The notes below the pieces were generated by a model. It was not told the DNA's origin. It did no database searches and saw only the letters and a program-made list of their open reading frames with translations. A stretch of DNA of 36,278 bases from a virus, in the IMG/VR virus record IMGVR_UViG_3300045988_041547, positions 1 to 36,278 of that record. One strand, given 5' to 3'. The translations under genes were made by a program, and so were the position numbers. Below, one piece after another: positions 1 to 17,800 of the stretch (position 1 is its first letter; the number at the start of each line of letters is the position of its first letter).

Positions 1-277
1 CGAACACCCACGCCTCGCCGGACACCCGGGCCTTGTCGAACACCCGGGCCTCGCCGGACACCCGGGCCTCGCCGAACACCTGCGCCTCGCCGGACACCCG
101 GGCCTTGTCGAACACCCACGCATCATGCTCCTGACTCAGGTTGGCTTCACTTTCAATCCAGCCACCTAGGTCACCGGCTTTTATCTCCCAGCGCTCGATA
201 TCAACGAGTGCGCGGATGCGGTGCAGCGTGACGCCAAACTCCACCTTAGTTTCATCGGTAAGTTCGTACTTTTTCAT
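1..277 (-). CDS. N-terminal part of a hexapeptide-repeat (beta-helix-like) phage protein; continues across the circular junction into 35955..36278
   Basis: Minus-strand ATG at 277 with GGAGGA 6 nt upstream (tcctcc at 284..289 on +). The frame is open to the window edge. Own translation: MKKYELTDETKVEFGVTLHRIRALVDIERWEIKAGDLGGWIESEANLSQEHDAWVF, followed by VFDKAR/VSGEAx repeats. The frame matches ORF 35955..36272 once the 49-nt overlap is collapsed (merged product 183 aa). Confidence 0.75.
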   Translation of the reverse strand, partial: MKKYELTDETKVEFGVTLHRIRALVDIERWEIKAGDLGGWIESEANLSQEHDAWVFDKARVSGEAQVFGEARVSGEARVFDKARVSGEAWVF

Positions 278-293
278 GCAGATTCCTCCATTT

Positions 294-470
294 CTATTGT
301 TCCCCTCGGATTGTCCTAGGGTGCCATTTTCTCTCGTCCCGGTAGCGGACAATATCCATCTGCCGTTTCCGGCTGATTTCTACCCGCTCACGGTGGAACG
401 CTTGGTAGCGCTCACAGCTGTCATGACATACGGAGTGTCGGTCTGGGCAATCCTTACATGGGGCCGTCAT
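294..470 (-). CDS. small Cys/His-rich (zinc-finger-like) early protein, 58 aa
   Basis: Own translation: MTAPCKDCPDRHSVCHDSCERYQAFHRERVEISRKRQMDIVRYRDERKWHPRTIRGEQ. It is below the ORF-track size cutoff. ATGA start/stop overlap with the upstream gene, and purine-rich GGGTGGAGGA directly upstream. Confidence 0.55.
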   Translation of the reverse strand: MTAPCKDCPDRHSVCHDSCERYQAFHRERVEISRKRQMDIVRYRDERKWHPRTIRGEQ

Positions 471-682
471 TCCTCCACCCCAAAGGCCCGCAGAAACGGA
501 ATGCGCGGGATCTTCGTGCGGTTCCCGCTCACCATAACGGGGAAGGGGAGCAGATCAGGCCGCTGGTGCGCCGCCACCCGGATATAGTCCGGGGTGCAGT
601 GGGCCACTTTCGCCGCCTGGGCCGGGGTAATAACGGCGGTGTCCATCTGCCGGATCTCCTCTAAAAGCTCCATGTCATTCAT
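467..682 (-). CDS. excisionase/MerR-type helix-turn-helix DNA-binding protein, 71 aa
   Basis: Internal ATG of ORF 467..739 preceded by AAGGAGG. MNDMELLEEIRQMDTAVITPAQAAKVAHCTPDYIRVAAHQRPDLLPFPVMVSGNRTKIPRIPFLRAFG resembles Xis/AlpA-type HTH proteins. Confidence 0.6.
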   Translation of the reverse strand: MNDMELLEEIRQMDTAVITPAQAAKVAHCTPDYIRVAAHQRPDLLPFPVMVSGNRTKIPRIPFLRAFGVEE

Positions 683-821
683 GGTCTTCCGCCTCCTTAT
701 CCATATCGGCTCGCATTTTAAGCATCTTAGCCCCGGCATTTACCAGTGCAAGGCTTTTCTGGTCAAGCTGTTTCAGCATTTCCACGGTCTCCTTGATGGT
801 TTTCTTGGTTTCTTCGCTCAT
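675..821 (-). CDS. small hypothetical early protein, 48 aa
   Basis: Own translation: MSEETKKTIKETVEMLKQLDQKSLALVNAGAKMLKMRADMDKEAEDHE. AAAGGAGG RBS 6 nt upstream. Its stop overlaps the next gene's start, consistent with translational coupling. Confidence 0.5.
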   Translation of the reverse strand: MSEETKKTIKETVEMLKQLDQKSLALVNAGAKMLKMRADMDKEAEDHE

Positions 822-884
822 GTTATAGCCTCCTTTTCGGTGGGATTTATGGGATGCGGCGATTCAGGCTCACCGCTCAGGGCC

Positions 885-1088
885 TTATTTCAGGAGGATA
901 TGCAGCCGGTCTGTTATTGCATAATAGCTAAGACACGAGATAGGCTTGTCAGCCAGATTCAAGACATTGTCATCAAACCAATTTCCATCCGCCACAACGT
1001 GGTGTCTCAGGTCCTGGATGATGATTCGGGTATCATCGGTTATCATCCGGTGGCCCTTTAACAGGCCCTCTAATGTTAAATCGTCCAT
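885..1088 (-). CDS. first early-operon gene, hypothetical 67 aa
   Basis: Internal ATG of ORF 885..1214 preceded by GGAGG (7-nt spacer). The longer form would run through the AT-rich promoter/operator region. Product starts MDDLTLEGLLKGHRMITDD...; no recognisable HTH. Confidence 0.55.
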   Translation of the reverse strand: MDDLTLEGLLKGHRMITDDTRIIIQDLRHHVVADGNWFDDNVLNLADKPISCLSYYAITDRLHILLK

Positions 1089-1140
1089 GTGCTTACCTCC
1101 ATGTGATTTTGCTTTGTTTGTAATCTCAATTTCTGAGGTT

Positions 1141-1169
1141 ATTATACCTAATAATTTTAGATTTGTCAA
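1141..1169 (-). promoter_or_regulatory. early (lytic) promoter, perfect sigma-70 consensus
   Basis: The minus strand reads TTGACA (1169..1164), a 17-nt spacer, then TATAAT (1146..1141). It sits about 50 nt upstream of the first minus-strand early gene. Confidence 0.65.
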
Positions 1170-1195
1170 TAGTAAGAATCTAATTTTTTTAGATT
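1157..1195. promoter_or_regulatory. candidate operator sites (TTAGATT half-sites)
   Basis: TTAGATT at 1157..1163, its inverted partner AATCTAA at 1177..1183 (13-nt spacer), and a third TTAGATT at 1189..1195. The first lies inside the spacer of the minus-strand promoter; the third lies between the two divergent promoters. Confidence 0.45.
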
Positions 1196-1201
1196 TTTGT
1201 A

Positions 1202-1230
1202 TTGATTTTTTCATCCGGTTCTGATATTAT
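1202..1230 (+). promoter_or_regulatory. promoter of the XRE repressor gene
   Basis: TTGATT (1202..1207), a 17-nt spacer, then TATTAT (1225..1230) with an upstream TG (extended -10). It is 26 nt before the ATG at 1256, which has a GGGGAGG RBS. Confidence 0.5.
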
Positions 1231-1255
1231 ATAAGAGCAGAGGGGAGGTGCAAAA

Positions 1256-1666
1256 ATGCCAGAAAACGAAACAGTTGGGCGGCGAATCAAGACTGTAAGG
1301 CAAGAAAAGGGAATGACACAAGCCCAACTTGCAGATCACAAAGATGTTAAGGTGACGAAAAACTACATCTATCTGATCGAGAGTGGGAAAACAGCTCCAG
1401 CAGAAAAGTTAGTTAAAGATATCGCAAAAGCGTTTGGTGTATCGGAAACGTGGCTGCTGACCGGAGAGGGTAATAAATACCCGCTCCCAGAGGACGAAAC
1501 CGCCGCTTATGTTGACCAGCTCTTGCATGATGCAGAAAACCCGCTATACGACATAATCCGGGCGATTATGAAAACGTACAGCGAGTTGGATGGAAACAGT
1601 CAGGCCGTGATCCGAAACACAATTGAGCAATTCCAGGAAAACTTAAAAAAAGAGGGTCGGGGTTAA
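1256..1666 (+). CDS. XRE-family HTH transcriptional regulator (CI-like repressor candidate), 136 aa
   Basis: VGRRIKTVRQEKGMTQAQLADHKDVKVTKNYIYLIESGKTAPAEKLVKDIAKAFGVSETWLLTGEG is a classic Cro/C1-type HTH. The gene is divergent from the early operon. Confidence 0.8.
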   Translation: MPENETVGRRIKTVRQEKGMTQAQLADHKDVKVTKNYIYLIESGKTAPAEKLVKDIAKAFGVSETWLLTGEGNKYPLPEDETAAYVDQLLHDAENPLYDIIRAIMKTYSELDGNSQAVIRNTIEQFQENLKKEGRG

Positions 1667-1679
1667 TCCCCGGCCCTCT
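1651..1679 (-). terminator. intrinsic terminator hairpin between convergent genes
   Basis: agagggtcgggg / ttaa / tccccggccctct forms a 12-bp stem. The minus-strand reading is followed by a U-run (aaaaaaa at 1644..1650 on +). It lies downstream of the minus gene 1789..2193 and overlaps the 3' end of the XRE gene. Confidence 0.5.
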
Positions 1680-1788
1680 CTATATGCCGTTTTACCAGCG
1701 TGTATATCTGGCTTAAAAATGTTAGATTGCTAACCTTCTGGACCATTCTAATGATTTCATCTCTGTACTCCTGTTCCATATGTATCTC

Positions 1789-2193
1789 CTATTCGTCTCG
1801 CTTTGCCGAGCAAAGCCCAAACGGGAAAATCCCGTCGGTTTTTGGCGTGGCTCTTTCGACATCACGGAGCATATCCAGCATCGCGTAACAGTCTTGCATT
1901 TGGTGGGTAACATTTTCGTCCTGCTGGATTTTCTCAAACATCCGGTTTGCTAACTCTGTAGCAGCGCCTTCGCGTTCGCAAATATACATTCGCTTGATCC
2001 CCTCCAGCTCTGCGCGGTATCCATTGCGCCCGAGATAGGGGGATATCCGCTCCATAGCCCTATACCACGATGCCTTTTCATCGTCATAGTTAATTTCTTC
2101 CTCCGTGTGCTGGTCGATTGCGATTTTTAGTAGCTCCTGCATATAGGTCAGCAGGAGCTGATACATTTCGTCCCGTGTTGTTGGTTTCTTCAT
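1789..2193 (-). CDS. hypothetical protein in the lysogeny module, 134 aa
   Basis: ORF-track ORF with an AAGGAGGAA RBS 6 nt upstream of the ATG. No family recognised. Confidence 0.6.
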   Translation of the reverse strand: MKKPTTRDEMYQLLLTYMQELLKIAIDQHTEEEINYDDEKASWYRAMERISPYLGRNGYRAELEGIKRMYICEREGAATELANRMFEKIQQDENVTHQMQDCYAMLDMLRDVERATPKTDGIFPFGLCSAKRDE

Positions 2194-2632
2194 GTGTGTT
2201 CCTCCTTATATGGTTCGCATCATTTTGCCAACATCGGCAAAATGCTCAAATACTCCAATTTGGGGGACGGTTGATCTAGCTTGGATAGATGCTTGTCTAA
2301 GCTCGGTTAAAAAATCACCTAAGTCAAGCCTAGACAAGCTCTATTATTCTGTGCTTTCATTTTTTATCAATTTTTCCGTTTTTCCTCTTGCGTTCTCCCG
2401 TGATTTTTAGTAAAATCATATTGTGATTGAGCCGTTGTAAAATGGTATGTGGGCTCCGTCTAAACTCTTCCGTTTCTAGCGGCGGGAGGTCTTCATGGCA
2501 CTGCATCATCGTCCCCACCTCCTTGCGGTGCCTATGCTTAGATTATACCAATCCATTTATTCCAATCAATACCATTTATGTGCTCATTTAGTGCTCTTTG
2601 ACGCTCAAATTGCGCCAAATCTGGAAAGGTCG

Positions 2633-3151
2633 ATGGGAATGAGCCAGAATCAGTCTGAGCTGATACGGCAGCTCCAGCAAATGCGGATGGAGAAGGGGCT
2701 GACCTACCAGGCCATAGTAGACGCTTGCGAGATGGCCGGGGAGCCTGTGTCTATGTCCTCTGTCCGGCGGATTTTTTCCGATGATCCAGACCGTCCGGAG
2801 GCTTTCCGGGTCACCACGCTCCAGGCTGTGGCTCGGGCCGTAATCGGTAATGCATACAACGCGGAAACAGTCCCGCCGTCTGATTTAGCGGCGCTCCGGG
2901 CCTTGCTAGCTGTCCGTGAGGAGACAGACAAGGATCGGCAGCAGGGGATCATAGACAGGACAGAGCAGATAGCCCGGATGCAGTCCACCATAGATGAGCT
3001 ACAAGCCGAGATCAAGCGGAAGTCTAAGACCATCAAAATCATGATCCTTTGGGCCTCTGTTATGACGATGCTGCTAATTGCGTTTTTTGTGGCCCTTGCG
3101 GTCTATGTTGTTTGGGATTTGTCGCACCCTGGGTGCGGGATATTAAGATAG
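2633..3151 (+). CDS. membrane-anchored XRE-like HTH protein (HTH + coiled coil + C-terminal TM helix), about 172 aa
   Basis: Internal ATG of ORF 2495..3151. LIRQLQQMRMEKGLTYQAIVDACEMAGEPVSMSSVRRIF is HTH-like. DRTEQIARMQSTIDELQAEIKRKSKTIK looks like a coiled coil. IMILWASVMTMLLIAFFVALAVYVVW is a hydrophobic helix. The start is uncertain (2633 or 2639). Confidence 0.6.
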   Translation: MGMSQNQSELIRQLQQMRMEKGLTYQAIVDACEMAGEPVSMSSVRRIFSDDPDRPEAFRVTTLQAVARAVIGNAYNAETVPPSDLAALRALLAVREETDKDRQQGIIDRTEQIARMQSTIDELQAEIKRKSKTIKIMILWASVMTMLLIAFFVALAVYVVWDLSHPGCGILR

Positions 3152-3163
3152 GAGGAGTTAAAA

Positions 3164-3811
3164 ATGGAGCAATTAGTTGGTACGCTGCTCCTGTTGTTCG
3201 TCTTTTCCGCTATCCTGATTGGGGCCCTGATGTGGCAAAAATCCGGCACAAAGCGGGCACAGAAAAAAGCGGAAGATCAAAATCGGCAGGATGAGACCCG
3301 GCAGAAGATCGCGGAGGCAGAGGCCGAGTGGAGGAAGCAGCCCCACTCTTGGGATGCTCCAGTGGCCCCGGAAAAGCCAAAGGAGGAGCCGAAAAAGGAT
3401 GATGGCGTAACATTTAAGGCCACCGGGATGGCCTACCACATGGACGGTCTAGAAAAAATCGCCGCTGAAAACTTGGACTATGAGATGACAAACGCGGAAA
3501 TAAAAGAGGAGTATGAGCAGTACGACAGAATCTATAAGTACGAGTACCCGGTAGAGACCGTGGAGCTTGTTCCGGAGCCAGACAACGAGGCCGACCCAAA
3601 CGCCATTGCTGTTCACATCAATGGAGAAAAGGTGGCCTATATTAAGAGAGGTAGCACCACCAGGGCCCGGAACCTCCTGGCAAGCAGAAACAGAAAAATA
3701 ACCGCTGAGGTGTACGGTGGGCCCTACAAAATGGTGGAGGAGGACGATGATGGCAGGTTGACCGTCATCAAAGACGAGAGCCCCATCCGCGTTATTATCA
3801 AGATCAAATAA
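3164..3811 (+). CDS. membrane-anchored HIRAN-domain protein, 215 aa
   Basis: N-terminal TM helix LVGTLLLLFVFSAILIGALMW, then a charged linker. The C-terminal part, FKATGMAYH...VELVPEPDNEADPNAIAVHINGEKVAYIKRGSTTRARNLL, matches the HIRAN pattern (v.L.rEPdNpyDpnAi.V...g..iGyi). A GGAGGAG RBS lies upstream. Confidence 0.6.
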   Translation: MEQLVGTLLLLFVFSAILIGALMWQKSGTKRAQKKAEDQNRQDETRQKIAEAEAEWRKQPHSWDAPVAPEKPKEEPKKDDGVTFKATGMAYHMDGLEKIAAENLDYEMTNAEIKEEYEQYDRIYKYEYPVETVELVPEPDNEADPNAIAVHINGEKVAYIKRGSTTRARNLLASRNRKITAEVYGGPYKMVEEDDDGRLTVIKDESPIRVIIKIK

Positions 3812-3814
3812 AAA

Positions 3815-3844
3815 ATGCCCCCGGTGTCCGAGCACCGGGGGCAT
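3815..3844. terminator. perfect 12-bp hairpin between the HIRAN gene and int
   Basis: atgcccccggtg / tccgag / caccgggggcat. The run of A before it gives a U-run only on the minus-strand reading. On + it may act as a weak terminator or insulator before int. Confidence 0.4.
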
Positions 3845-3953
3845 TGCAGAATAAGGGAGATGCCAAACGACACCAGCGGAAACGGGATCGATTGGAGGAA
3901 TCTGCGCATTTATTATAGCGGATATCTCCCGGAATTACAAGGGGGGAAATCAT

Positions 3954-5060
3954 ATGCAATGCCGGAAATGCCGTGCAGAGGCCCCAGGCGGGGCCAATTA
4001 CTGCCCAAAGTGCGGGGCTAAATTAGTTGTTGCGCACGGAGTAAAAAGTCGTGGCAACGGTCAAGGAACCGCTTTTAAGCGTGGGAAAACGTGGACAGCA
4101 AAGTGGAGCCTCCCGGCATACATTGATGAAAATGGGAAACTGCATCACCCACGTAAAACAAAGGGTGGATTCCAGACAAAAAAAGCCGCATTGGCTTATG
4201 CGTCATGCCCACCGGATTCCGTTGTCAAAGCGCCTACACTCCGAGCATACCATAAGACATGGCACAACGCAGGATTTACAAAATTGAGCAAATCAAAGCA
4301 AATAGCCTATGATATAGCGTGGAAGCGCTGGGCTGGCCTATATGATAAGCCTGTGTCTAATATCTCCATAGGTGATTTGCAGGGGCAGGTGGACACTGAG
4401 ACCTCCACATACTACCCCGCACGGGATATGAAAACCGTAGCGTCACACCTCCTGAAAATGGCCGTTGCAGAGGGCCATCTCCGGGCAAATCTGGCGGAAT
4501 ATATCGAGCTTCCACCGCTGGATGAAAAAGAGATGACCCCGTACACCGAGGACGAGATTAAATTATTCTGGGCGGCATACACCGCCGGTGATACGTTTGT
4601 GGGCTACATCCTGCTGATGATCTACACCGGCATGATGCCCGGTGAGCTATTTATCCTCAAAAAAGACATGATAGATTTTGACAAATGCGAAATTCGGGGT
4701 GCTGGTCTGAAGACCAAAAAGCGGAAAGAAACGCCCCTGGTATTTCCGCAGTCAATCAGCCCCGTGCTCCGCAAACTCTGTGACTGCTCCAAGAGCCGAA
4801 AAGATTACGTTTTATGCATGGACCGCGACAAATTTTACCCAGAATACCATAGAGCTGTCCAAAGCGCTGGATGCAGGGATCTCCCGCCGTACTCCTGCCG
4901 CCATACCACTGCTACAGCACTGGCGCTTGGAAACATCGCCCCTTCTGTTATTCAGGAGGTTATGAGGCATAGTAAATTTACAACGACGCAGCGCTATATT
5001 CACCCCGATAATGCCGCTTCCCATGCCGCGATCAATCAGATCGTGACAAGCGCAGAGTGA
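3954..5060 (+). CDS. int: tyrosine integrase with N-terminal zinc ribbon, 368 aa
   Basis: N-terminus MQCRKCRAEAPGGANYCPKCG (CxxC..CxxC). The C-terminus has tyrosine-recombinase boxes: ...MMPGELFIL..., CRHTTATALALGNI, VMRHSKFTTTQRYIH. It sits directly upstream of the tRNA-derived attP. Confidence 0.9.
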   Translation: MQCRKCRAEAPGGANYCPKCGAKLVVAHGVKSRGNGQGTAFKRGKTWTAKWSLPAYIDENGKLHHPRKTKGGFQTKKAALAYASCPPDSVVKAPTLRAYHKTWHNAGFTKLSKSKQIAYDIAWKRWAGLYDKPVSNISIGDLQGQVDTETSTYYPARDMKTVASHLLKMAVAEGHLRANLAEYIELPPLDEKEMTPYTEDEIKLFWAAYTAGDTFVGYILLMIYTGMMPGELFILKKDMIDFDKCEIRGAGLKTKKRKETPLVFPQSISPVLRKLCDCSKSRKDYVLCMDRDKFYPEYHRAVQSAGCRDLPPYSCRHTTATALALGNIAPSVIQEVMRHSKFTTTQRYIHPDNAASHAAINQIVTSAE

Positions 5061-5062
5061 CG

Positions 5063-5085
5063 CTATTGGCTACATATTGGTTACA
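5063..5085 (+). repeat. left copy of a direct repeat flanking the attP core (candidate Int arm-type site)
   Basis: ctattgg (5063..5069) and attggttaca (5076..5085) recur at 5314..5320 and 5328..5337. Confidence 0.45.
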
Positions 5086-5121
5086 CAAGGCGAATTTTTG
5101 TAGTGTTTTCAACGGTTTTGA

Positions 5122-5185
5122 CTCCCCTGCTAAGGGAGTAGGCCGGGAAACCGGCGCGAGGGTTCAAATCCCTCCTTCCGCGCCA
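5122..5185 (+). other. attP core: 3' portion of tRNA-Ser(GCU), not a complete tRNA gene
   Basis: ctccc-ctGCTaa-gggag anticodon arm, long variable arm taggccgggaaaccggcgc, T-arm gagggttcaaatccctc, acceptor 3' strand cttccgc-g-cca. There is no matching 5' acceptor strand or D-arm upstream. Confidence 0.75.
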
Positions 5186-5187
5186 AA

Positions 5188-5232
5188 AGTACCGCATTTG
5201 CACTTGATTTTGTGTAAATGCGGTACTTTTTT
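5188..5232 (+). terminator. rho-independent terminator after the tRNA fragment (usable in both directions)
   Basis: agtaccgcattt ... aaatgcggtact forms a 12-bp stem followed by tttttt. An A-run before it makes it usable for the converging minus-strand accessory operon as well. Confidence 0.7.
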
Positions 5233-5313
5233 GCTATATTTATTTGAAAGTCTGCGCTTTGCGAATCCGCTAGGAATCACGCAGGATCACCCCAAATTAG
5301 GCAAAAATATACC

Positions 5314-5337
5314 CTATTGGTCACAACATTGGTTACA
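5314..5337 (+). repeat. right copy of the direct repeat flanking the attP core
   Basis: ctattgg (5314..5320) and attggttaca (5328..5337), nearly identical to 5063..5085. Confidence 0.45.
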
Positions 5338-5814
5338 TCATTCCGCCGCGATCCCGTGGTAATACGCCGCCAATTTGGCTTCCGGTCCAGGTCCGTCCTT
5401 GTCAAACAGAAACGCTTTTGCGAGATCGGCGTAAAACTCTACCTTGTTGCATCCGTGCTTTGTTGCCACGCTGCAATAGTCCGAGTACATCATATTCATG
5501 GCGGTGTTCCATTCCTCCGGTGTGATGTGCTCCATCACTACCCCAGCAGTTTTCGCCGCGTCGGTGGTCTGGGCTACTGTCCAATGTCCCCCAGTGCTAC
5601 CATCATCGTTTTTCATATGGGCGTTCCACTTCTCCAGGGCGTGGTCACTAAGTTTCCCAGCATGACACACACAATGCTCCATGTCGTTGACGTGCTCCCA
5701 GCACTCAATCATAGCGTCAACAGCCGCCATAGAGCGAGTGCCGATAGGTAGGGCTAGATACTCGGCTAGTTCATGTTCTAGCTTTTCTCTGTACTCCTTC
5801 AATTTGCTTTTCAT
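5338..5814 (-). CDS. hypothetical accessory protein, 158 aa
   Basis: ORF with an AGGGGGG RBS. It is the last gene before attP. No function assignable from sequence. Confidence 0.65.
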   Translation of the reverse strand: MKSKLKEYREKLEHELAEYLALPIGTRSMAAVDAMIECWEHVNDMEHCVCHAGKLSDHALEKWNAHMKNDDGSTGGHWTVAQTTDAAKTAGVVMEHITPEEWNTAMNMMYSDYCSVATKHGCNKVEFYADLAKAFLFDKDGPGPEAKLAAYYHGIAAE

Positions 5815-5826
5815 TGTATTCCCCCC

Positions 5827-6267
5827 TTATGCCAGTTTTACGACACTGGCGCAGACGTGGGAGATTGTACCCGCCACGCCTCCAAGCGTAGCGCTGATGG
5901 TGGGGGTGCCATTGCAGCACACTGGGACATAGATTGTAGTCTCTGCGTGGAGCGTGTACACAGAGCCAGCGGCTACCGTTTCCTGCGCATTGAGGCAAGG
6001 AAGCGTTGCCGTGTCCTTGAGTCCCTGGAGCACCGCCACGCCAGCAGCTGACGGTGTGAAGGTCACGTCATAGGATACGCGATAAAGGCCGGAAGAGTTG
6101 ACCTGGAAGCCTCCTGCAACCGTGTCTACTGAGCATCCGGTGTCAGTGTTGAGCACGCCCAGCACGGATACGGGGGTGCCGGTGGCAACAAACGCCTGTG
6201 ATGCGTCGTTATAAGCGTTCTGGGCGCTCTTATAGTGGGGATTTTTAAGATTTCTGTTGCAGCTCAT
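5827..6267 (-). CDS. stand-alone BclA-C-terminal-like (C1q/TNF-type jelly-roll) protein, 146 aa
   Basis: AAGGAGAA RBS. The segments ...GGFQVNSSGLYRVSYDVTFTPSAAGVAVLQ...TTIYVPV...ISHVCASVVKLA follow the beta-strand pattern and ...as..v.kvA C-terminus of the Bacillus/Clostridium BclA C-terminal domain. Confidence 0.55.
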   Translation of the reverse strand: MSCNRNLKNPHYKSAQNAYNDASQAFVATGTPVSVLGVLNTDTGCSVDTVAGGFQVNSSGLYRVSYDVTFTPSAAGVAVLQGLKDTATLPCLNAQETVAAGSVYTLHAETTIYVPVCCNGTPTISATLGGVAGTISHVCASVVKLA

Positions 6268-6287
6268 ATTGTTCTCCTTTCAGAAAT

Positions 6288-6311
6288 GCCCGGGGCAATT
6301 CCGCCCCGGGC
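6288..6311 (-). terminator. 9-bp GC hairpin between accessory genes (attenuator or weak terminator)
   Basis: gcccggggc / aattcc / gccccgggc. On the minus strand it is followed by AUUUCU. Confidence 0.35.
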
Positions 6312-6340
6312 TTATCGCTGTTAGAGCGGTTGGTTGTTGG

Positions 6341-6979
6341 TTATGCGCACCCGCAGCCGCTATTGCAGCCGCAGAAGGGAGATGGCCCAGCCGTGTAAGT
6401 GTAACCGTTCGGATAACGGACAACACCGTACATGCGGTTGTCAGCCTCCAGAGCAGAGACCTTATCCCGCAGCTGCTGGATTTCGTTGGCCTGCATCAGT
6501 GCCCGGGTCTGCTCACCCTCGGCGTGGATCGCCGTAGTGATGTCGCAGGTCTGCCGGTCAATCTGTGCGGACAGGTTAGCGGTCGCAAGTCTGTTGTCGC
6601 AGCAACACTGGGCAATCTGAGACTGGATGTTGTTCCCGGTCTGCATAATCGTTGTGTTTGTGCCCGCCTGCGCAAGCGCAACTTCTTTGCCAAGCTGACC
6701 GATGTTGCTCTGCATCTCATAGCCCAGGTTGCAAATTCCGTTGCCCAGGTTGGACAGCCGGTCGTTGATCTGTCCGAACTGCTGCCCAAACAGAATCTCC
6801 TGCTGAGAGGCCGCAGTTGCATAACGATCAAGCTCCCCGCTGTTCTGGCGGTTAAATCCGTTCCAGCCGCCCATAATGACAAACAGAAACAGGATGATAA
6901 TCCACCATGCACCGTTACCGGCCATGCCGTCAGCATCCTTGGTTACCGCTGCCAGGTCGGAAAGACTATAGTTTTCCAC
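6341..6979 (-). CDS. membrane protein with coiled-coil region, CCC motif and Cys-rich C-terminus, 212 aa
   Basis: GTG start with an AAGGAG RBS. TM helix AWWIIILFLFVIMGGW. Gln/Asn-rich helical repeats, QCCCDNR, and C-terminal FCGCNSGCGCA. Confidence 0.65.
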   Translation of the reverse strand: MENYSLSDLAAVTKDADGMAGNGAWWIIILFLFVIMGGWNGFNRQNSGELDRYATAASQQEILFGQQFGQINDRLSNLGNGICNLGYEMQSNIGQLGKEVALAQAGTNTTIMQTGNNIQSQIAQCCCDNRLATANLSAQIDRQTCDITTAIHAEGEQTRALMQANEIQQLRDKVSALEADNRMYGVVRYPNGYTYTAGPSPFCGCNSGCGCA

Positions 6980-7029
6980 AAAATCACTCCTTGTCGTTAG
7001 ATTTTATATAACACCGTAGCGCTCCGGGG

Positions 7030-7254
7030 TTATTTCAAAAATTCGGAAAATTCCGCCGCCTGCCGCTTGAGTTGCTGAAACTGCTCCTGCGTCATTTGCC
7101 CGCTGGAGAGCATCTGCTCTACCTGCCGTTTTGCCCCCTCCGGGGTCATACCGGCGGCGAATTTGCGAAACTCAGAAATCATAGCAAGCGGGTTATTTGC
7201 TGTTGTTTTTTGCGGCTGACTTTGCCGCAGAAATTGGCTCAGTGGGTTTGTCAT
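7030..7254 (-). CDS. small hypothetical protein, 74 aa
   Basis: ATG with a GGAGG RBS (9-nt spacer). It overlaps the 3' end of the upstream gene by 62 nt in another frame. Confidence 0.5.
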   Translation of the reverse strand: MTNPLSQFLRQSQPQKTTANNPLAMISEFRKFAAGMTPEGAKRQVEQMLSSGQMTQEQFQQLKRQAAEFSEFLK

Positions 7255-7570
7255 TTATAGTTGCCTCCAATCTTGCTATACGCTCTTCCAGGCTCCGTAC
7301 GTCAACCGCTGGAGCCTCCTTGTGGGGCGATATGTCAAATGCCTGTACGGTCTTATAGCCTGCGCCGTCTGTCTGGCAAAGCCAGATCATTGGTGCAGTA
7401 TCATCCATCACAATAGCATTGCTGTTTGGCGCCATCTGGAGCGCCTGCGCTCCATTTTGTCCATTGACATGTATTACCTCATATCTTGGCGCCTGCTGCT
7501 GGGGTTGCTGATTGTAGTAGTTGCCATAGCCCTGATACGGGGCATTGTAAGCTCCATACCCATATGCCAT
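7193..7570 (-). CDS. Tyr/Gly/Asn/Gln-rich N-terminus protein, 125 aa
   Basis: ATG at 7570 with GGAGGTG 8 nt upstream. MAYGYGAYNAPYQGYGNYYNQQPQQQ low-complexity head, then a globular part and LEERIARLEATI. Confidence 0.6.
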   Translation of the reverse strand: MAYGYGAYNAPYQGYGNYYNQQPQQQAPRYEVIHVNGQNGAQALQMAPNSNAIVMDDTAPMIWLCQTDGAGYKTVQAFDISPHKEAPAVDVRSLEERIARLEATINDKPTEPISAAKSAAKNNSK

Positions 7571-7715
7571 TTGCCTCACCTCCTGGATTAAGCATACCGC
7601 AGCCGGTGATTATTCGCCACGCTGCGAAAGTCTCCCTTTTTTATCAAATTTTTATCAAAAAAGTATCATTTATGGCTTGGCATATACACAGATGAATTCT
7701 AAATTTAAGAGCAAG

Positions 7716-7745
7716 AAAATCCCCCACCGAAAGGTGGGGGATTTT
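7716..7745 (-). terminator. strong intrinsic terminator after the lysis operon
   Basis: aaaatcccccacc / gaaa / ggtgggggatttt is a perfect 13-bp stem flanked by A/T runs on both sides. Confidence 0.8.
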
Positions 7746-7746
7746 C

Positions 7747-7944
7747 TCATACCCGATTCATTTTTCTCCGGACTTTGCCAGACAAATGCCGGATTCCACC
7801 CGGCGAGTAGTCCATGATCTCCCCGCAGGATTCCAACGTTTCCCCGGCGGCACGCAGGTCAAAAAACCTGCGCTCTGGTCCGGTAAAATTGCAGGTTGCG
7901 CGGAAATGCTCCAGCTCCGGAATGGTGTAGTCTCTGATCTGCAT
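7747..7944 (-). CDS. small sigma-70 region-4 / LuxR-like HTH protein, 65 aa
   Basis: ATG with a GGAGGTG RBS. FTGPERRFFDLRAAGETLESCGEIMDYSPGGIRHLSGKVRRKM resembles region-4-type HTH mini-proteins. Confidence 0.45.
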   Translation of the reverse strand: MQIRDYTIPELEHFRATCNFTGPERRFFDLRAAGETLESCGEIMDYSPGGIRHLSGKVRRKMNRV

Positions 7945-7959
7945 CCCCGTCACCTCCAA

Positions 7960-8991
7960 TTACCGATTCGTGATAATCATAACCCTTACGGTGCTCTCCG
8001 GCATATCCAGCACCAGCTCTTCCCCTTCTCCGGCTTTGCCCTTGAGCTTGCCAGCTGCCACCAGCTTGTCAACCTCAGTACGGTAATAGTCCGGCAGCTC
8101 GGAGATCAGGTGATAATACCGCTCAATCGGCTGGAGCCTGCCATCACTGCCAAGCCCTACAACCATATTGGTCTGCATATCACCGTCCGCACCCAGATAG
8201 TAGGTATCGCCGCCTGCTTCAACTTTCCACGCATTTTCCAGCATATAGCCCTCCTTGTCGAAGTAATACCACGTATCCTTGATCTTTGCCCACTGCTCTT
8301 TGTAGTAGGTAGTGGTGCTGTTGGCGTACCACCAGCCCTTGCTGTCCTTGTGCCAGCCGATGGTGTACTTACCGGTAGTACCAGCCAACAGACTTGCGTC
8401 GCCCAGCACATTGACGTCAAACCGCCCAGAGCATCCGGGGATGGTGTAGGAGCTGCTGTACTGCCAGATTGCCCAGCCAGCCGCAGACGCTGTGCTGGCA
8501 TACTGCGCATACCACTGGACGTATCCACCCACCCGGTTAATGTCCACATATTTTCGGAGATAGTCCAGGTTGTAGTATGTACCAGCCCGGTACCCAGCCG
8601 CCTTGATCGTCTCACAGAATGCCACAGTATGGGCGTTAAATGCCTCTTTGCCCAGAGTGACGCCCTGCTTTTTGGCGTAGGAGACGGTGTCATACTCAAA
8701 ATCGTAGAACACCGGCAAGGCCAGCTTATCCTTGTACGGTTCCAGCAGCTTGAGCACAAATGCCGCCTCCGCTTTTGCCCCGGCAGCATTGAGGGCATAG
8801 CTAAAGTGATACACACCCACAGGGATTCCCTGAGCAATCGCACCCTCAATATTATGGATAAAATAGTTGTCGGTGTGGCTGACGCCGTAGCCGGTGCGGA
8901 TAATGGCAAACCCAATGCCCGCCGCCTTGATTTTCGCCCAGTCCAGAGCGCCGTTATGCTCCGAAACGTCGATACCGATAATTTTAGCCAT
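7960..8991 (-). CDS. endolysin: GH25 muramidase + Trp/Tyr-rich cell-wall-binding repeats + C-terminal extension
   Basis: MAKIIGIDVSEHNGALDWAKIKAAGIGFAIIRTGYG is a GH25 N-terminus. GWHKDSKGWWYANS..YYKEQWAKIKDTWYYFDKEGYMLENAW looks like choline-binding-type repeats. The start overlaps the holin stop. Confidence 0.85.
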   Translation of the reverse strand: MAKIIGIDVSEHNGALDWAKIKAAGIGFAIIRTGYGVSHTDNYFIHNIEGAIAQGIPVGVYHFSYALNAAGAKAEAAFVLKLLEPYKDKLALPVFYDFEYDTVSYAKKQGVTLGKEAFNAHTVAFCETIKAAGYRAGTYYNLDYLRKYVDINRVGGYVQWYAQYASTASAAGWAIWQYSSSYTIPGCSGRFDVNVLGDASLLAGTTGKYTIGWHKDSKGWWYANSTTTYYKEQWAKIKDTWYYFDKEGYMLENAWKVEAGGDTYYLGADGDMQTNMVVGLGSDGRLQPIERYYHLISELPDYYRTEVDKLVAAGKLKGKAGEGEELVLDMPESTVRVMIITNR

Positions 8992-9205
8992 TGTCGTTGT
9001 CCTCCTCAACGTTGACCTCCGGCAGCCCTGCAATACTGGTCAGCAGGCTCACAACGCCTGCCAGTGCCGCAGTGCCTACCACGGTTACCCAGTCCACTGC
9101 GCCGATGGTCACGGCAGCGGGAATCATTGCAACTGCCGTCTGCGCCACCGTTTTCACAGCACGGATACCGGCGGCTTTCCACCACATCTTTGTCTTAATG
9201 GGCAT
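8984..9205 (-). CDS. holin (phi LC3-like), about 73 aa
   Basis: AGIRAVKTVAQTAVAMIPAAV and VTVVGTAALAGVVSLLTSIAG are hydrophobic segments, followed by an acidic tail. It sits immediately upstream of the endolysin. ATG 9205 has better RBS spacing than 9214. Confidence 0.75.
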   Translation of the reverse strand: MPIKTKMWWKAAGIRAVKTVAQTAVAMIPAAVTIGAVDWVTVVGTAALAGVVSLLTSIAGLPEVNVEEDNDNG

Positions 9206-9464: not shown

Positions 9465-9863
9465 TTACACCTCCGCAAAATATGTTTTGTCCTCAAGCCC
9501 GGTCGGCACGCCGTCCTCCAGCGCGACATAGAGGTGCGTGCCGTCGGTATAGTGGTACCCTGTCTTGACCTCACGCCCCTCTGTCCAGCGCAGTGGATTC
9601 TTCAGAGTGCCCAGCGCGTCAGGGTCTTCCACCAGCTCCCACGTAAATCCGGCGGACGAGGCGTACACCGGTTTCCATTTATACCCTACCTTTGGCTCCA
9701 TCGTCGGCACCGGCTCCTCTGGGATTGTCCCCAGTATCAATGCGATTTTTTCACTGTCCGTTAACGGCTCCATGCTGCGCTCCGCGTTGAGCTGTGATTC
9801 CTGCATTGCCGCAATTTCCTCGGCGGTCATGTCTCGGATGACGCCATTGTCGTTTATCTTCAC
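9465..9863 (-). CDS. hypothetical tail-fibre-associated protein
   Basis: ORF 9465..9878. A GTGA start/stop overlap with the fibre gene favours GTG at 9863; the TTG at 9878 is the alternative. Confidence 0.55.
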   Translation of the reverse strand: MKINDNGVIRDMTAEEIAAMQESQLNAERSMEPLTDSEKIALILGTIPEEPVPTMEPKVGYKWKPVYASSAGFTWELVEDPDALGTLKNPLRWTEGREVKTGYHYTDGTHLYVALEDGVPTGLEDKTYFAEV

Positions 9864-14177: not shown

Positions 14178-14878
14178 AGTGTCCACCACCTCGGTATGAT
14201 CTCGATCTTGGTCACTCCGCCCGTCCACGATACCGGATTCTCACCCGGCTCCAACTCCGGAAACTCAGCGGCCTTAATCGTGCTGTTTTTGTTGCTCAGG
14301 CCCTTATAGGCGTCCTGAGTGGAGCAGTCAATCGTCACATAGCCGTCTATTGCCGTGATCTGCGCCGTTTTGCCCCCCACCGTCACGGTTCCCTCCCCGC
14401 TTCCGTATACGGTCAGTAAGGGGAGCGCAGTCTCCCCGGCGTTATAGAGCGTGCCCGGGGAGGTGAACGTCACCGGCGTTTCCCCATCTTTGCGGAAAAG
14501 CTGGGGTTTGCAGTCGAATGTAATGTCAAACTGTCCAGACTCCCAATACGCCCCAATCAGCTGCGGTTCGATTCCGCCGGACAGCATCCCCAAGCGGAAA
14601 TGATCCGGGAAATAGGTGTCCTCCAGCCTGCAATACTGCCCCTTTGGCAATGCCGCGCGAAACGCCGCAAACTTAGCCTTAAAATCGGATTGGATACCGC
14701 ATACATACCGGATTTGCACATTGTTATATCTGCCGTTGTCATAGGTCAGTGTTCCATTACGTCCGGGCACCGATACCGTGGTTACGTCTCGCTCTGCGGT
14801 GGAGAAAACCCCATCCCCAGAAATGGCGATGCCGTAATCAGCGGTGTCAACTCCGCCAAAAATAAATTTATTTCTCAG
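14174..14878 (-). CDS. distal tail protein (Dit); start apparently non-canonical
   Basis: The Dit-like N-terminus KFIFGGVDTADYGIAISGDGVFSTAERDVTTVSVPGRNGTL lies upstream of the first ATG/GTG/TTG (14770) in an open frame. AGGTGG at 14890..14885 sits 6 nt before an in-frame CTG at 14878. Confidence 0.6.
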   Translation of the reverse strand: MRNKFIFGGVDTADYGIAISGDGVFSTAERDVTTVSVPGRNGTLTYDNGRYNNVQIRYVCGIQSDFKAKFAAFRAALPKGQYCRLEDTYFPDHFRLGMLSGGIEPQLIGAYWESGQFDITFDCKPQLFRKDGETPVTFTSPGTLYNAGETALPLLTVYGSGEGTVTVGGKTAQITAIDGYVTIDCSTQDAYKGLSNKNSTIKAAEFPELEPGENPVSWTGGVTKIEIIPRWWTL

Positions 14879-17800
14879 TTCAATCCACCTGCCCTCTGTG
14901 TAAACATATGATTGATCCTAGATACCACCACATCCGCCAGCTCGTTGACGTTTTGCCCGGAGGTGCCGTAGACATTGACCACCGGGGAGAAATTAGTTGT
15001 TCTGCTTCCCCCGCTGACCGGCACGCCGAGGCTGCCGGAGAGGTTGCCCCCCAGAGTGCCGACGGCCTTAGAAACGTCTTTGGCCTTGGCCTTGATGCCC
15101 TCCACCATGCCAGCCGGGATCATCGCGCCGACCTGGTCACGGAAGACCTTGGACGGCGAGTGGATCCCAAGAGAGGACTTGGCAGAATTTAGCGCTTTCT
15201 GTGCCGCATTTCTGGCTGCTCTGGATATCAGTCCGCTACCGGAGTTAATGCCATAGGCCACACCAGCAGAGATGTTGTAGCCAAGCGTGTTCCATCCGCC
15301 GATCTGCATGGCGTTTTTTGCGGCGTATGCTGCCGCCGCCGCCGCTCCGGCCACGGTAGCGGTCCCGGCGGTAATTCCTCCAGACACAGCCCCGGCGGCA
15401 GAAACGCCAGACTGGCGGAATGTCCCGGACATACTCCCCCATACAGTATTGATAGAGGTCGCTTGCTGCTTGGCGGTGGATCGGATGTTATTAGACTGCC
15501 CCGCAAGCCCGGTCTTGATTTGGTTCCCGGCGCTCTGGCCGGACTGCCGGAAGCGTCCTGCGGTTGTAGTCCATACGTTTGTTACATCCGTAGCCAACTT
15601 ACGCCCTGCGGTCTGCACGCTGTTGGATTGCAGCAGCAGACCAACCTTAATTTTAGTCCCGGCTTCCGTGCCCGCCGCCTGGAACTCTCCGCCGCTGGAC
15701 GACCAGGACGTTTTGAGCGCATCCGCAAGCTCTGCCCCGGCCTTCTGTACATCCCCGGCCCCGCTTTTGAGCCCATTAGAGATTCCCTGGGCCACAGCGT
15801 CTCCAAGGTCAGTCCATTTAATTTGTGCAATGGCGCTATGCGCAGCCATGCCTAGTTCCTGGGCGGCATCCTCGACAGCTGGTGCCTGTGCCGCAATTCC
15901 CGCCGCCAGCTCACTGCCGCTTTCCGCGCCTTTGCTGGTCATGTCGGTACTGCTGTAGCCGTCCACGGCACTTTGACCCATTGCAGCACCGGAATCATAG
16001 AGCGTTCCGGCGCTCATTGCCGCGCCAAGCACCGCCTTTTCTGTGGCGTTTTGACCTGCCGCCTGGAATTTGCTGCCCCACTCTGCAAGCTCCGCATCCG
16101 TCAAATCGACAAACTGCGCCACCTGCGCCGCGCCTTTTAGACCCATGTCATAGAGCTGTTGCACCAGGGCCATTGTGCCAGAATCTCCAGACGCAACTGC
16201 CCGATTCCACAGGGTCTCCATGTTGGCATTCCAGTTTTCCTGCGCCTCAATGTTGGCCTGGAGGTTTGAGGCCATATCGCTGAGGCTCATGTCCAGGCTA
16301 GTCTCGGCTTTTTCAAAATCGTTAACCACAGAATCCGTTGCATCGGTTACCTTGCTATTAAAATCGTCTACGGACATGCCCGCATCGATCAGATAACCAG
16401 CCACGGCAGAGGTAGACACGCCGATGCTGTCGGCCATGTTGCCGTACTCCTTGCCCAGCTCCTGGGTGGTCGCGGCCAGCTCCAGCATTTTTAATGCCCG
16501 TTCTGTATCTGCGGTCACTTGCGCGTCTGCATCCTCGGTATACTGCTCTGCCTGTTTTGAGAGCTCCTCGTATGCTGCGCTAAGGTCACCGCCAGCGTTT
16601 AGCGCATCATAAGCAGCAACGCCAACTTTTGCAAGACTCGTCGTGGCAGTCTCTTCGGCGGTGGCCTGTTCTTGGGCAGCTTCCGCCGCCTCCAGGTGCT
16701 CCTCTGCAAGGCTATTGTTGGCAAGTTCCGCCTTGTGCGCTTCGTTCCACTGGGCCGTCATTTTCCGTCCCAGTGTGTCCTCAGACACGCCCAGCAGTGC
16801 AGCCGCATCCTCGGCGGGTAGATACCCGTCATTGACCAGGCCAATCAGGGACTGCTCATATTGGTCGGTTACGGCCCTTGCCTCGTCGAGGGAGCCTTGC
16901 AAATCGTCGTAAGAGTCTCGCGCCCCCTCCAGGCATACCGCCGCATCCTGCAATTCAATGTTGGTGCTGGTCGTGGCTTTACCATTCTTTTTGATCTCTG
17001 CGGTTGACTGCCTCGTAGCATCTTGCAGGCGGTTTTCCGCGTCCGTCACCCGGTCTTTGGCCTTGGTGATTTTGTCCTGGATCTCCCGCTGCTCTTTTAG
17101 TGATTTTTGGTAGTCCTTTGCGCCTTTTACAAGCTCGGCGTAGATATCAGAGTCGGCGCGGTCTGCCTCGGCCTGTGCAAGCTCCTTTTGAGTTTTAACC
17201 GTCTCGTCCAGGCTGTCGTTGTACTCGCCCTCTGCGGCGATGGCCCCATTGGTAGCCTCTGCCAGAGCGGCCCGCACCTCTGCAAGCTCGTCCTGTACTG
17301 CGGCATACTCCTCCGCCGTCAGGGTGGAGTCCTGTGTTTTCTTTTGCAGTTCCTCATAGCGGTTTGCAAGGTCAACGACATTCTGGTTTTCGCTGAGACG
17401 CTCCTGGGCCTTGCTCATATCCTCCAGGTGCTTTTTTATCTGGATCGTCGGATCAGTCGCGTTGTGGATTGCGTTTCCAAGTGCGATTGCTCCGGCAGTC
17501 GCCGCCGCAGCTCCCGCTACTGCAAGCCCAGCAGCTCCGGCAGAGCCAAGGGTTGCAGTTAGGGCAGTGGCCAGACCGCCGCCGCCCTCCAATGCCGCTA
17601 CAAATTTACCGGCACCGATAACGGCGGATCCGGTTCCCTGTACCAGTTTCCCGATCCCGCTTGTGGCCGTGCCCACGGCGGTGGTCACCGGTCCAATCGC
17701 CGCAGCTACCGCCGCCGCCTGGATGATACTTTTTTTCTCGCTGTCGTCCAGCTCGCCAAAGCCCTTTACAAGCTCCGTGGTTTTCTGGATCAGCGGGGTG

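Follow-up and report, generated by a model that had tools for sequence, protein, structure and literature searches.

The DNA analysed here, hereafter the window, is IMG/VR virus record IMGVR_UViG_3300045988_041547 over its full 36,278 nucleotides, the ~36-kb genome of a temperate siphovirus-like phage whose minus strand carries almost all of its genes. The exception on the plus strand is a lysogeny block of four co-oriented genes that encode an XRE repressor, a tail-anchored helix-turn-helix (HTH) protein (gene 1), a membrane-anchored protein with a HIRAN domain (gene 2) and a tyrosine integrase (Table 1). We find that gene 2 belongs to a large family of prophage proteins in which one HIRAN-type domain is joined to diverse membrane anchors, and that gene 1 and gene 2 are two independent genes of the lysogeny module, not one system. 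An earlier note on this sequence had described the two genes as a paired cargo lying between repressor and integrase. The slot is indeed the lysogeny module, and by hydropathy both proteins are membrane-anchored as that note had read them; the pairing itself did not hold up in other prophages.

A GGAGGAG Shine-Dalgarno sequence of its own precedes gene 2, whose start lies 12 nt past the stop codon of gene 1. Protein conservation across many independent contigs shows both to be real genes rather than chance open reading frames (ORFs). In the AlphaFold2 (AF2) model of the gene 2 product, the N-terminal transmembrane (TM) helix extends into a charged helical stalk that reaches aa 58, after which come a Pro/Lys/Glu-rich linker (aa 59-81) and the HIRAN-type domain; the mean pLDDT is 92.3, with lower values of 69-71 over aa 61-80 in the linker. 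The TM helix is directly followed by the sequence QKSGTKRAQKK, with a net charge of +3. By the positive-inside rule this K/R-rich stretch predicts an N-out/C-in topology with the HIRAN domain in the cytoplasm, and the same bias after the TM is found in 14 of 17 relatives with a single N-terminal TM.

The assignment of gene 2 to HIRAN, which the earlier note had made from a sequence pattern, was borne out by several lines of evidence. The protein matches Pfam PF08797 over aa 127-186 at 25.5 bits (gathering cut-off 24.7), and a PDB search with a profile built from 122 relatives matched the HIRAN chains of HLTF (E = 1.2e-5). When the model was compared with the PDB using Foldseek, the best 16 matches were all either HLTF HIRAN or the bacterial stand-alone structure 3k2y (probability 1.00, E ~1e-3), the next match lying at E = 0.17. 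The long N-terminal helix and a family-specific helical insertion (aa 89-116, with a conserved EN.DY motif) keep the corresponding TM-scores modest (TMt 0.37-0.53); the domain further carries a long C-terminal beta-hairpin with an invariant GG.YK. In BFVD the top Foldseek matches are uncharacterised phage proteins annotated as 'HIRAN domain-containing', at E-values down to 1e-14.

At the residue level, the gene 2 motif PEPDNEADPNAIAVHINGEKVAYI aligns with RDPNNPYDKNAIKVNNVNGNQVGHL of HLTF, and G88, P139, D144, A147, V150, G185, G186 and K189 are invariant across the 122 sequences. Among the residues equivalent to the HLTF pocket, Asp144 (HLTF Asp94) is thus invariant, Asn141 (Asn91) is kept in 121 of the 122 sequences and position 91, where the window protein has the counterpart of Tyr72, is aromatic or His in 119; position 143 corresponds to Tyr93. 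We regard the identity of the domain and its membrane-anchored architecture as firm. Two other matches were set aside: one of the N-terminus to Rz-like spanins in PHROGs (E = 0.009-0.06), which reflects the composition of a TM followed by a charged helix, the lysis genes lying elsewhere, and a weak one to PADLOC PDC-M03B (E = 6e-4), which reflects the shared HIRAN domain only.

Close relatives of gene 2 form five clusters, and the profile search recovered no fewer than 762 clusters, formed at 90% identity, of proteins 130-250 aa long that contain the whole ~135-aa domain, most of them with a precomputed PF08797 match. Fused to this domain are one or two N-terminal TMs, TM2 domains, C-terminal TMs or W-rich segments and, more rarely, a zinc ribbon or no additional element. 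All of the anchored layouts, 2-TM hairpins and C-terminal tail anchors included, are likewise predicted to place the domain inside the cell. Given such diverse anchors on a single domain, it is location at the membrane, rather than any particular anchor, that appears to be selected. The plasmid collection gave one partial match, to a Rhodococcus plasmid, and the family is therefore not plasmid-borne.

We then counted the neighbours of the HIRAN gene in 53 dereplicated clusters, using as denominators the 45 or 49 clusters with enough flanking sequence. Among 49 clusters, 32 have a co-oriented integrase gene that starts no more than 2.2 kb downstream, and 37 have an XRE gene of the same orientation no more than 1.6 kb upstream. 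Both are present in 30 of 45, and any integrase gene at all is found within 4 kb in 39 of 45. The order repressor, membrane-associated HIRAN protein, integrase (of the tyrosine or serine type) is thus a robust pattern in prophages of Clostridia and Streptococcus, and it recurs in unrelated phages of Oscillospiraceae, Lachnospiraceae, Faecalibacterium and Streptococcus. The annotated Streptococcus prophages Javan349 and IPP12 carry a family member labelled 'hypothetical protein', and the two proteins match the whole-domain profile at E = 6e-27 and 8e-20. In pneumococcal prophage phiRMV8 a gene of this kind has been named thaL by Kwun et al., who give the name and no functional test (PMC12637031). 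As the point of comparison, in place of the phiRMV8 product, we used pneumococcal IPP-prophage proteins from the same position (profile E = 8e-20, tblastn E = 8e-6). Gene 2 is a new member of this large ThaL-type family, whose architecture is known by name and not by function. The earlier note knew of no characterised system with this architecture; as to function this stands, and a literature search for HIRAN together with superinfection exclusion, anti-phage activity or the membrane found no functional study. As an architecture, it is a large family already present in annotated streptococcal prophages.

The co-occurrence of the two genes was examined from both sides. Of the 19 IMG/VR loci seeded with gene 1, 18 have it directly 5' of an integrase gene, as do all the remaining contig places that we examined. 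The gap between the two genes is -4 to ~200 nt, and the integrase may be either a tyrosine recombinase of 368 aa or a serine recombinase of 441-543 aa. No HIRAN gene was found in those 18 loci or in the P0010, P0044 and P0046 contig places. The lone exception, L105, is the window's own phage, in which the HIRAN gene stands between gene 1 and the integrase gene; gene 1 is thus not cargo, as had been supposed, but a lineage-conserved neighbour of the integrase that is separated from it in the window's clade alone. Sister phages with an 84-86% identical integrase carry gene 1 without the HIRAN ORF. Since in these HIRAN-less relatives the hairpin that follows gene 2 in the window is found directly 3' of the gene 1 stop codon, the HIRAN ORF is a precise insertion between stop codon and hairpin. 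Repressors of three HIRAN-positive members of the lineage are mutually 20-30% identical, and one of them is 72% identical to the repressor of a HIRAN-less phage. The HIRAN gene is an accessory, moron-like insertion, present or absent independently of the repressor type.

Viewed from the HIRAN gene, a gene-1-type neighbour occurs in about 5 of the 53 clusters and is missing from about 48, and where the two co-occur elsewhere their order is XRE-HIRAN-G1-Int, the reverse of the G1-HIRAN order of the window. Lineages with both gene types are the window clade, L016-18, L040, L053 and L134 (about five), plus L064 (divergent); broader hidden Markov models (HMMs) had raised this count from 3 to about 5 relative to the first, narrow ones. 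In L015, positions 2860-3477, between the repressor and a gene-1 homologue, we observed an ORF for a protein with an N-terminal TM and a coiled coil whose C-terminus resembles a divergent HIRAN domain (KVAGVTF...LVRTEFNGEPAIEV...VGYI). As this cargo was missed by the HMMs and seen by eye only, co-occurrence may be slightly under-counted. An obligate two-gene defence system was rejected, there being no fixed co-occurring arrangement across lineages; the earlier note had itself named a lack of joint conservation as grounds for refutation.

Table 1. Features of the lysogeny block and its surroundings (positions in the window).
Feature	Position	Strand	Basis or remark
Gene 2, ThaL-type membrane-anchored HIRAN protein, 215 aa	3164-3811	+	Pfam, profile, AF2, Foldseek
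Gene 2 N-terminal TM anchor (aa 4-24)	3173-3235	+	Hydropathy KD19 = 2.68 at aa 4; AF2 helix 2-58
Gene 2 HIRAN-type domain (aa 82-215)	3407-3808	+	pLDDT 93-98; Pfam HIRAN aa 127-186
Gene 1, tail-anchored protein, 172 aa	2633-3151	+	ORF, hydropathy, AF2, homologues
Gene 1 C-terminal TM (aa ~135-161)	3035-3115	+	KD19 maximum 2.57 at aa 142; pLDDT 87-95 over aa 131-160
Gene 1 extracytoplasmic tail WDLSHPGCG (aa 161-172, ~11 residues)	3113-3148	+	Among the most conserved parts of gene 1
XRE/CI-type repressor, 136 aa	1256-1666	+	HTH_19 1.5e-15, HTH_3 1.5e-13; PHROG transcriptional repressor
Tyrosine integrase, 368 aa, N-terminal zinc ribbon	3954-5060	+	Phage_integrase 1.2e-15, Zn_Ribbon_1; PHROG_1 integrase 3e-36
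134-aa ORF with perfect AAGGAGGA Shine-Dalgarno	1789-2193	-	Variable slot between repressor and gene 1
Conserved small ORF (MMQCHEDLPPLE...)	2357-2569	-	Divergent from gene 1; sigma-70-like promoter
GC-rich hairpin, 13 bp stem	3814-3845	.	Terminator-like scan; compared with L106, L107, L114, L001, L003

The true start of gene 1 is probably the second ATG, at 2639, as homologues begin MSxNQ. Its AF2 model (pLDDT 75) contains helices at aa 3-21, 25-34, 41-49, 60-75 and 82-164, that is, a four-helix N-terminal domain with the appearance of a divergent XRE-like HTH (aa 3-75) and one long helix, the last ~27 residues of which form the protein's single strong hydrophobic segment; some 11 residues extend beyond it. 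The sequence KRKSKTIK precedes this TM, and the HTH is therefore predicted to be cytoplasmic. A search for homologues found 41 clusters, and the family has 340 representatives at 50% identity; the C-terminal TM is present in 98 of 148 family representatives, and no Pfam family covers the family. For the window protein alone, the HTH_31 match reaches 18.2 bits against a cut-off of 27, and Foldseek returned C-proteins and XRE regulators with probabilities of 0.75-0.93 but E-values above 0.3; an hhalign comparison with an XRE alignment gave E = 3.5e-4 in the correct register. Bona fide HTH_3 domains followed by the same C-terminal TM and tail occur in family members from L064 (35.4 bits against a cut-off of 23) and L016 (6304-6723). 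The XRE-like HTH of the earlier note is thus faintly suggested by the window protein itself and backed by these relatives, so that gene 1 may tentatively be called a divergent member of this type. An alternative identity as SpoIIIAB (Spore_III_AB, PF09548) was discarded, since the match reaches 29.3 bits against a cut-off of 32.5 and the window protein is the only one of 141 family members to show it. Matches of the gene 1 profile to TAL-effector and Fur structures in the PDB were judged to be repeat or HTH-like noise.

The extracytoplasmic tail of gene 1 conforms to WDxxHPGxG and, more broadly and including distant relatives, to W/Y-D-x-x-H/N-P-x-x-G-aromatic. Its place among the most conserved parts of the protein suggests that the tail makes a functional contact at the membrane's outer face. 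Gene 1 probably encodes a membrane-tethered regulator that belongs to the integrase end of the module. In L134 a gene-1-type ORF (5468-6127) overlaps the start of a serine integrase gene (6124-7491) by 4 nt in an ATGA-type junction, and in L053 one (5601-6125) abuts the integrase start at 6133, which hints at translational coupling. The integrase slot itself, within one phage lineage (3954-5060 in the window; L007, L011, L015 and L108-L118), holds either the 368-aa tyrosine recombinase with its N-terminal zinc ribbon or a large serine recombinase of 441-543 aa; since gene 1 stays fixed upstream of either type, this is a module swap. As gene 1 travels with the integrase and stands outside the HIRAN system, it merits separate study.

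The divergent region directly upstream of gene 1, including the intergenic stretch 2519-2632, is conserved across relatives. On its minus strand lies a small ORF (2357-2569) whose N-terminus, M(M/K)QCHEDYPPPE, is kept in relatives while the remainder varies; its strong promoter (2569 to 2542) has the form TTGATT-16-TATAAT with a TG and overlaps a tandem 14-nt repeat (2543-2570). This promoter and small-ORF region may be the target, or operator, of the gene 1 HTH, or alternatively the small ORF may be a PPP-stalling leader. The hairpin downstream of gene 2 marks the end of the gene 1-gene 2 unit. With a T-run on the minus and an A-run on the plus strand, it resembles a terminator that acts on antisense transcripts or in both directions.

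Elsewhere in the window, the minus-strand genes include those for TerL, capsid, a GH25/choline-binding lysin (7960-9033) and RecT/YqaJ. A 1333-aa ORF at 14875-18876, which has no family match, we take by size and position to encode the tape-measure protein. Record UViG_3300045988_027065 of IMG/VR is a 98-100% identical phage, and an Oscillospiraceae metagenome-assembled genome (MAG; L126) holds a 98% identical copy of gene 2; the host is therefore a monoderm gut bacterium of the Clostridium class. A near-identity search of positions 1200-5200 against INPHARED found no related isolate phage, its sole match being 55-64 nt at 3923-3986, just 5' of and overlapping the integrase start. A tRNA scan found none, so that no tRNA-based att site can be called, and an Rfam scan of positions 1-8000 gave no credible match. 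Just past the integrase gene, on the minus strand at 5338-6267, a DUF7841 protein and a BclA_C-like (C1q/TNF-like) protein, both kept there in relatives, may be tail-fibre or receptor-binding accessories. Sister phage L003 carries, at 9513-9686 and close to the lysin gene, a 57-aa gene with a match to Pfam AcrIC5 (anti-CRISPR). The 134-aa ORF at 1789-2193 has no match in Pfam, PHROGs, NCBIfam or PADLOC; its slot holds other cargo in sister phages, namely an Ltp lipoprotein (L012-14), a PH_gly_zipper protein (L007-10) and a 2-TM protein (L011).

What might gene 2 do in this position? We tentatively favour a role as a superinfection-exclusion-like factor that acts through a membrane-held, 3'-end-binding HIRAN domain. 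The domain would be held on the cytoplasmic face of the membrane by the TM, the helical stalk and the flexible linker, and its pocket (Asp144, Asn141 and Tyr91) would bind a free 3'-OH DNA end as HLTF does. A role of HLTF D94 in 3'-OH recognition was reportedly described by Kile and by Hishiki, both in 2015. HLTF accommodates a single-stranded dinucleotide in a cavity flanked by Y72 and Y93 (PMC4666394). With the gene 2 domain tethered to the membrane, the ends within its reach would belong to linear DNA on its way into the cell; it would hold or block the first end of a superinfecting phage genome to arrive, so that entry, circularisation or replication would fail and the lysogen would not be killed. 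Gene 2 is inserted in a transcription unit that runs from repressor to integrase, and so is presumably made in the lysogen. The exclusion reading is further supported by the presence of Ltp in the neighbouring slot of sister phages L012-L014, as Ltp of Streptococcus thermophilus phage TP-J34 is a proven superinfection-exclusion protein, a surface-exposed lipoprotein encoded in the lysogeny module (PMC3952083). A broader claim, that membrane-tethered HIRAN proteins form a new and widespread class of prophage exclusion factors that sense the free 3'-OH of invading linear DNA at the cytoplasmic mouth of the entry site instead of a phage-specific protein, appears doubtful to us at present; were it true, a single small protein could work against a wide range of phages and perhaps against other DNA that enters.

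Several points weigh against exclusion by end capture. At position 143, the counterpart of the stacking Tyr93 of HLTF, 90 of the 122 sequences have Tyr or His, but the window protein and its nearest relatives carry Ala, and end binding may therefore be weaker in the window's clade. About a quarter to a half of the family members have no clear TM by hydropathy. Production in the lysogen is presumed from gene order only, and the near-constant adjacency to the integrase could point to integration or lysogeny control instead of exclusion. To our knowledge DNA-end binding has not been reported as the action of Ltp, P22 SieA or lactococcal Sie2009, so that the mechanism would be without precedent among known exclusion proteins. 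Finally, our literature search found no experiment on any ThaL-type family member, Kwun et al. giving thaL no more than its name (PMC12637031).

Among other explanations, a sensor for lysogeny control would detect DNA damage (3' ends at stalled forks or gaps) through its HIRAN domain and bring about inactivation of the repressor or control of the integrase or excision. It would account for a place between a short, peptidase-less XRE repressor and an integrase, and the counts of co-oriented XRE genes upstream and integrase genes downstream given above agree with it; moreover, the HIRAN gene of L022-24 follows an ImmA-like M78 peptidase gene, and the eukaryotic HIRAN domain is a sensor of stalled forks (PMC4666394). 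We nevertheless consider it unlikely, because the HIRAN gene is accessory within one phage lineage, accompanies repressors as dissimilar as those compared above, including one closely matched in a HIRAN-less phage, and is found with both tyrosine and serine integrases, and because a membrane tether is hard to square with the sensing of chromosomal forks. An improbable alternative is abortive infection by a one-protein analogue of RexAB, in which the HIRAN domain senses the burst of phage 3' ends and the TMs cluster and depolarise the membrane, so that the cell dies before phage release. A lysogeny-module gene that combines a TM with a DNA sensor recalls rexA and rexB, which are co-transcribed with cI, and single-TM proteins that act as both sensor and effector are common in defence; there is also the weak PADLOC match to the HIRAN component of a candidate defence system. 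That component, PDC-M03B, is the partner of a HipA kinase, however, and no kinase is encoded among the ORFs neighbouring gene 2, while anchors that range from one or two TMs, TM2 domains, C-terminal TMs and W-rich segments to a zinc ribbon or none fit localisation better than pore formation.

That gene 1 and gene 2 form one membrane system after all, an HTH sensor or regulator and a HIRAN effector acting jointly on incoming DNA, would suit their spacing and co-transcription in the window and its closest relatives, the shared layout of a cytoplasmic nucleic-acid-binding domain on a single TM anchor, and the occurrence of both gene types in the same module of about five lineages, plus L064 (divergent). 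We regard it as very unlikely, since it is largely refuted by co-occurrence: the gene-1-seeded loci and contig places without HIRAN, the HIRAN clusters without a gene-1-type neighbour (about 48 of 53), the opposite gene order elsewhere and the sister phages with gene 1 alone. Transforming single-stranded DNA (ssDNA) enters Gram-positive cells 3' end first, and as HIRAN binds 3' ends of ssDNA, a membrane-held copy might trap the leading end of imported DNA and guard the prophage against 'chromosomal curing'. The sole paper to name thaL treats an arms race between prophages and transformation; yet it also describes the thaL-carrying phiRMV8 lysogen as transformable and all three studied prophages as deleted by recombination about as efficiently as base substitutions were transferred (PMC12637031), which makes such a guard very improbable. 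A role in anchoring the phage's own DNA (its ends or its replication intermediates) at the membrane during establishment or replication would have a model in phi29 p16.7. This integral membrane protein of the same layout binds both ssDNA and terminal protein and gives phi29 replication its organisation at the membrane (PMC4974454). Such anchoring seems the remotest of the alternatives, as gene 2 is oriented with the repressor and integrase genes and opposite to the early and replication genes, is dispensable in sister phages and bears no relation to p16.7 in sequence or fold.

If the exclusion reading is correct, gene 2 would represent a mechanistically new form of superinfection exclusion and would give stand-alone HIRAN domains of bacteria or phages their first physiological role. 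The family is very common yet functionally blank, and it occupies the highly informative position between repressor and integrase of temperate phages. Whether it captures DNA ends is directly testable, as a thaL homologue sits in a prophage of pneumococci, which are naturally transformable and genetically tractable.

Known systems share one or another of these features. Lambda RexA and RexB are a two-gene unit co-transcribed with the repressor that excludes phages, one being a membrane protein and the other a DNA sensor; they have no homology to the genes described here and, unlike gene 1 and gene 2, form an obligate pair. The candidate defence or toxin-antitoxin pairs PDC-M03 and HipA-HIRAN (HipI) likewise contain a stand-alone bacterial HIRAN protein, but there the protein is soluble and has a HipA-like kinase as its partner, whereas gene 2 is membrane-anchored, prophage-borne and without an adjacent kinase gene. 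In p16.7 of phi29 the order is N-terminal TM, coiled coil and C-terminal DNA-binding domain. As proposed for gene 2, this integral membrane protein binds DNA on the cytoplasmic side (PMC4974454); its DNA-binding fold is unrelated, and its gene is an early lytic one from a virulent phage, in contrast to gene 2 with its place in a lysogeny module.

With the superinfection-exclusion proteins Ltp, Sie2009 and P22 SieA (PMC10883804), gene 2 shares the genomic slot, the association with the membrane and the presumed production by the lysogen. Gene 2 resembles these families neither in sequence nor in fold, no match to them having been found in Pfam, PHROGs, NCBIfam or PADLOC, and no DNA-end-binding domain is known in any of the three; Ltp acts outside the membrane (PMC3952083), whereas the domain of gene 2 is predicted to be cytoplasmic. 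Human HLTF HIRAN (PDB 4XZF, 4S0N, 5BNH and 2MZN) has the same fold, with the Asp, Asn and Tyr72 residues of the pocket conserved. Gene 2 differs from HLTF in its membrane anchor, the absence of helicase and RING domains, Ala in place of Tyr93, the helical insertion of ~30 residues after the first strand and the extended C-terminal hairpin. The nearest counterparts in annotated phages are the streptococcal prophage proteins of Javan349 and IPP12, which, like gene 2, combine one or more TMs with a HIRAN domain and are encoded between a CI/XRE repressor gene and an integrase gene in the same orientation. They are about 27-37% identical to gene 2 and come from Streptococcus rather than an Oscillospiraceae host, and in place of its single N-terminal TM the Javan349 protein has two N-terminal TMs and the IPP12 protein a C-terminal one.

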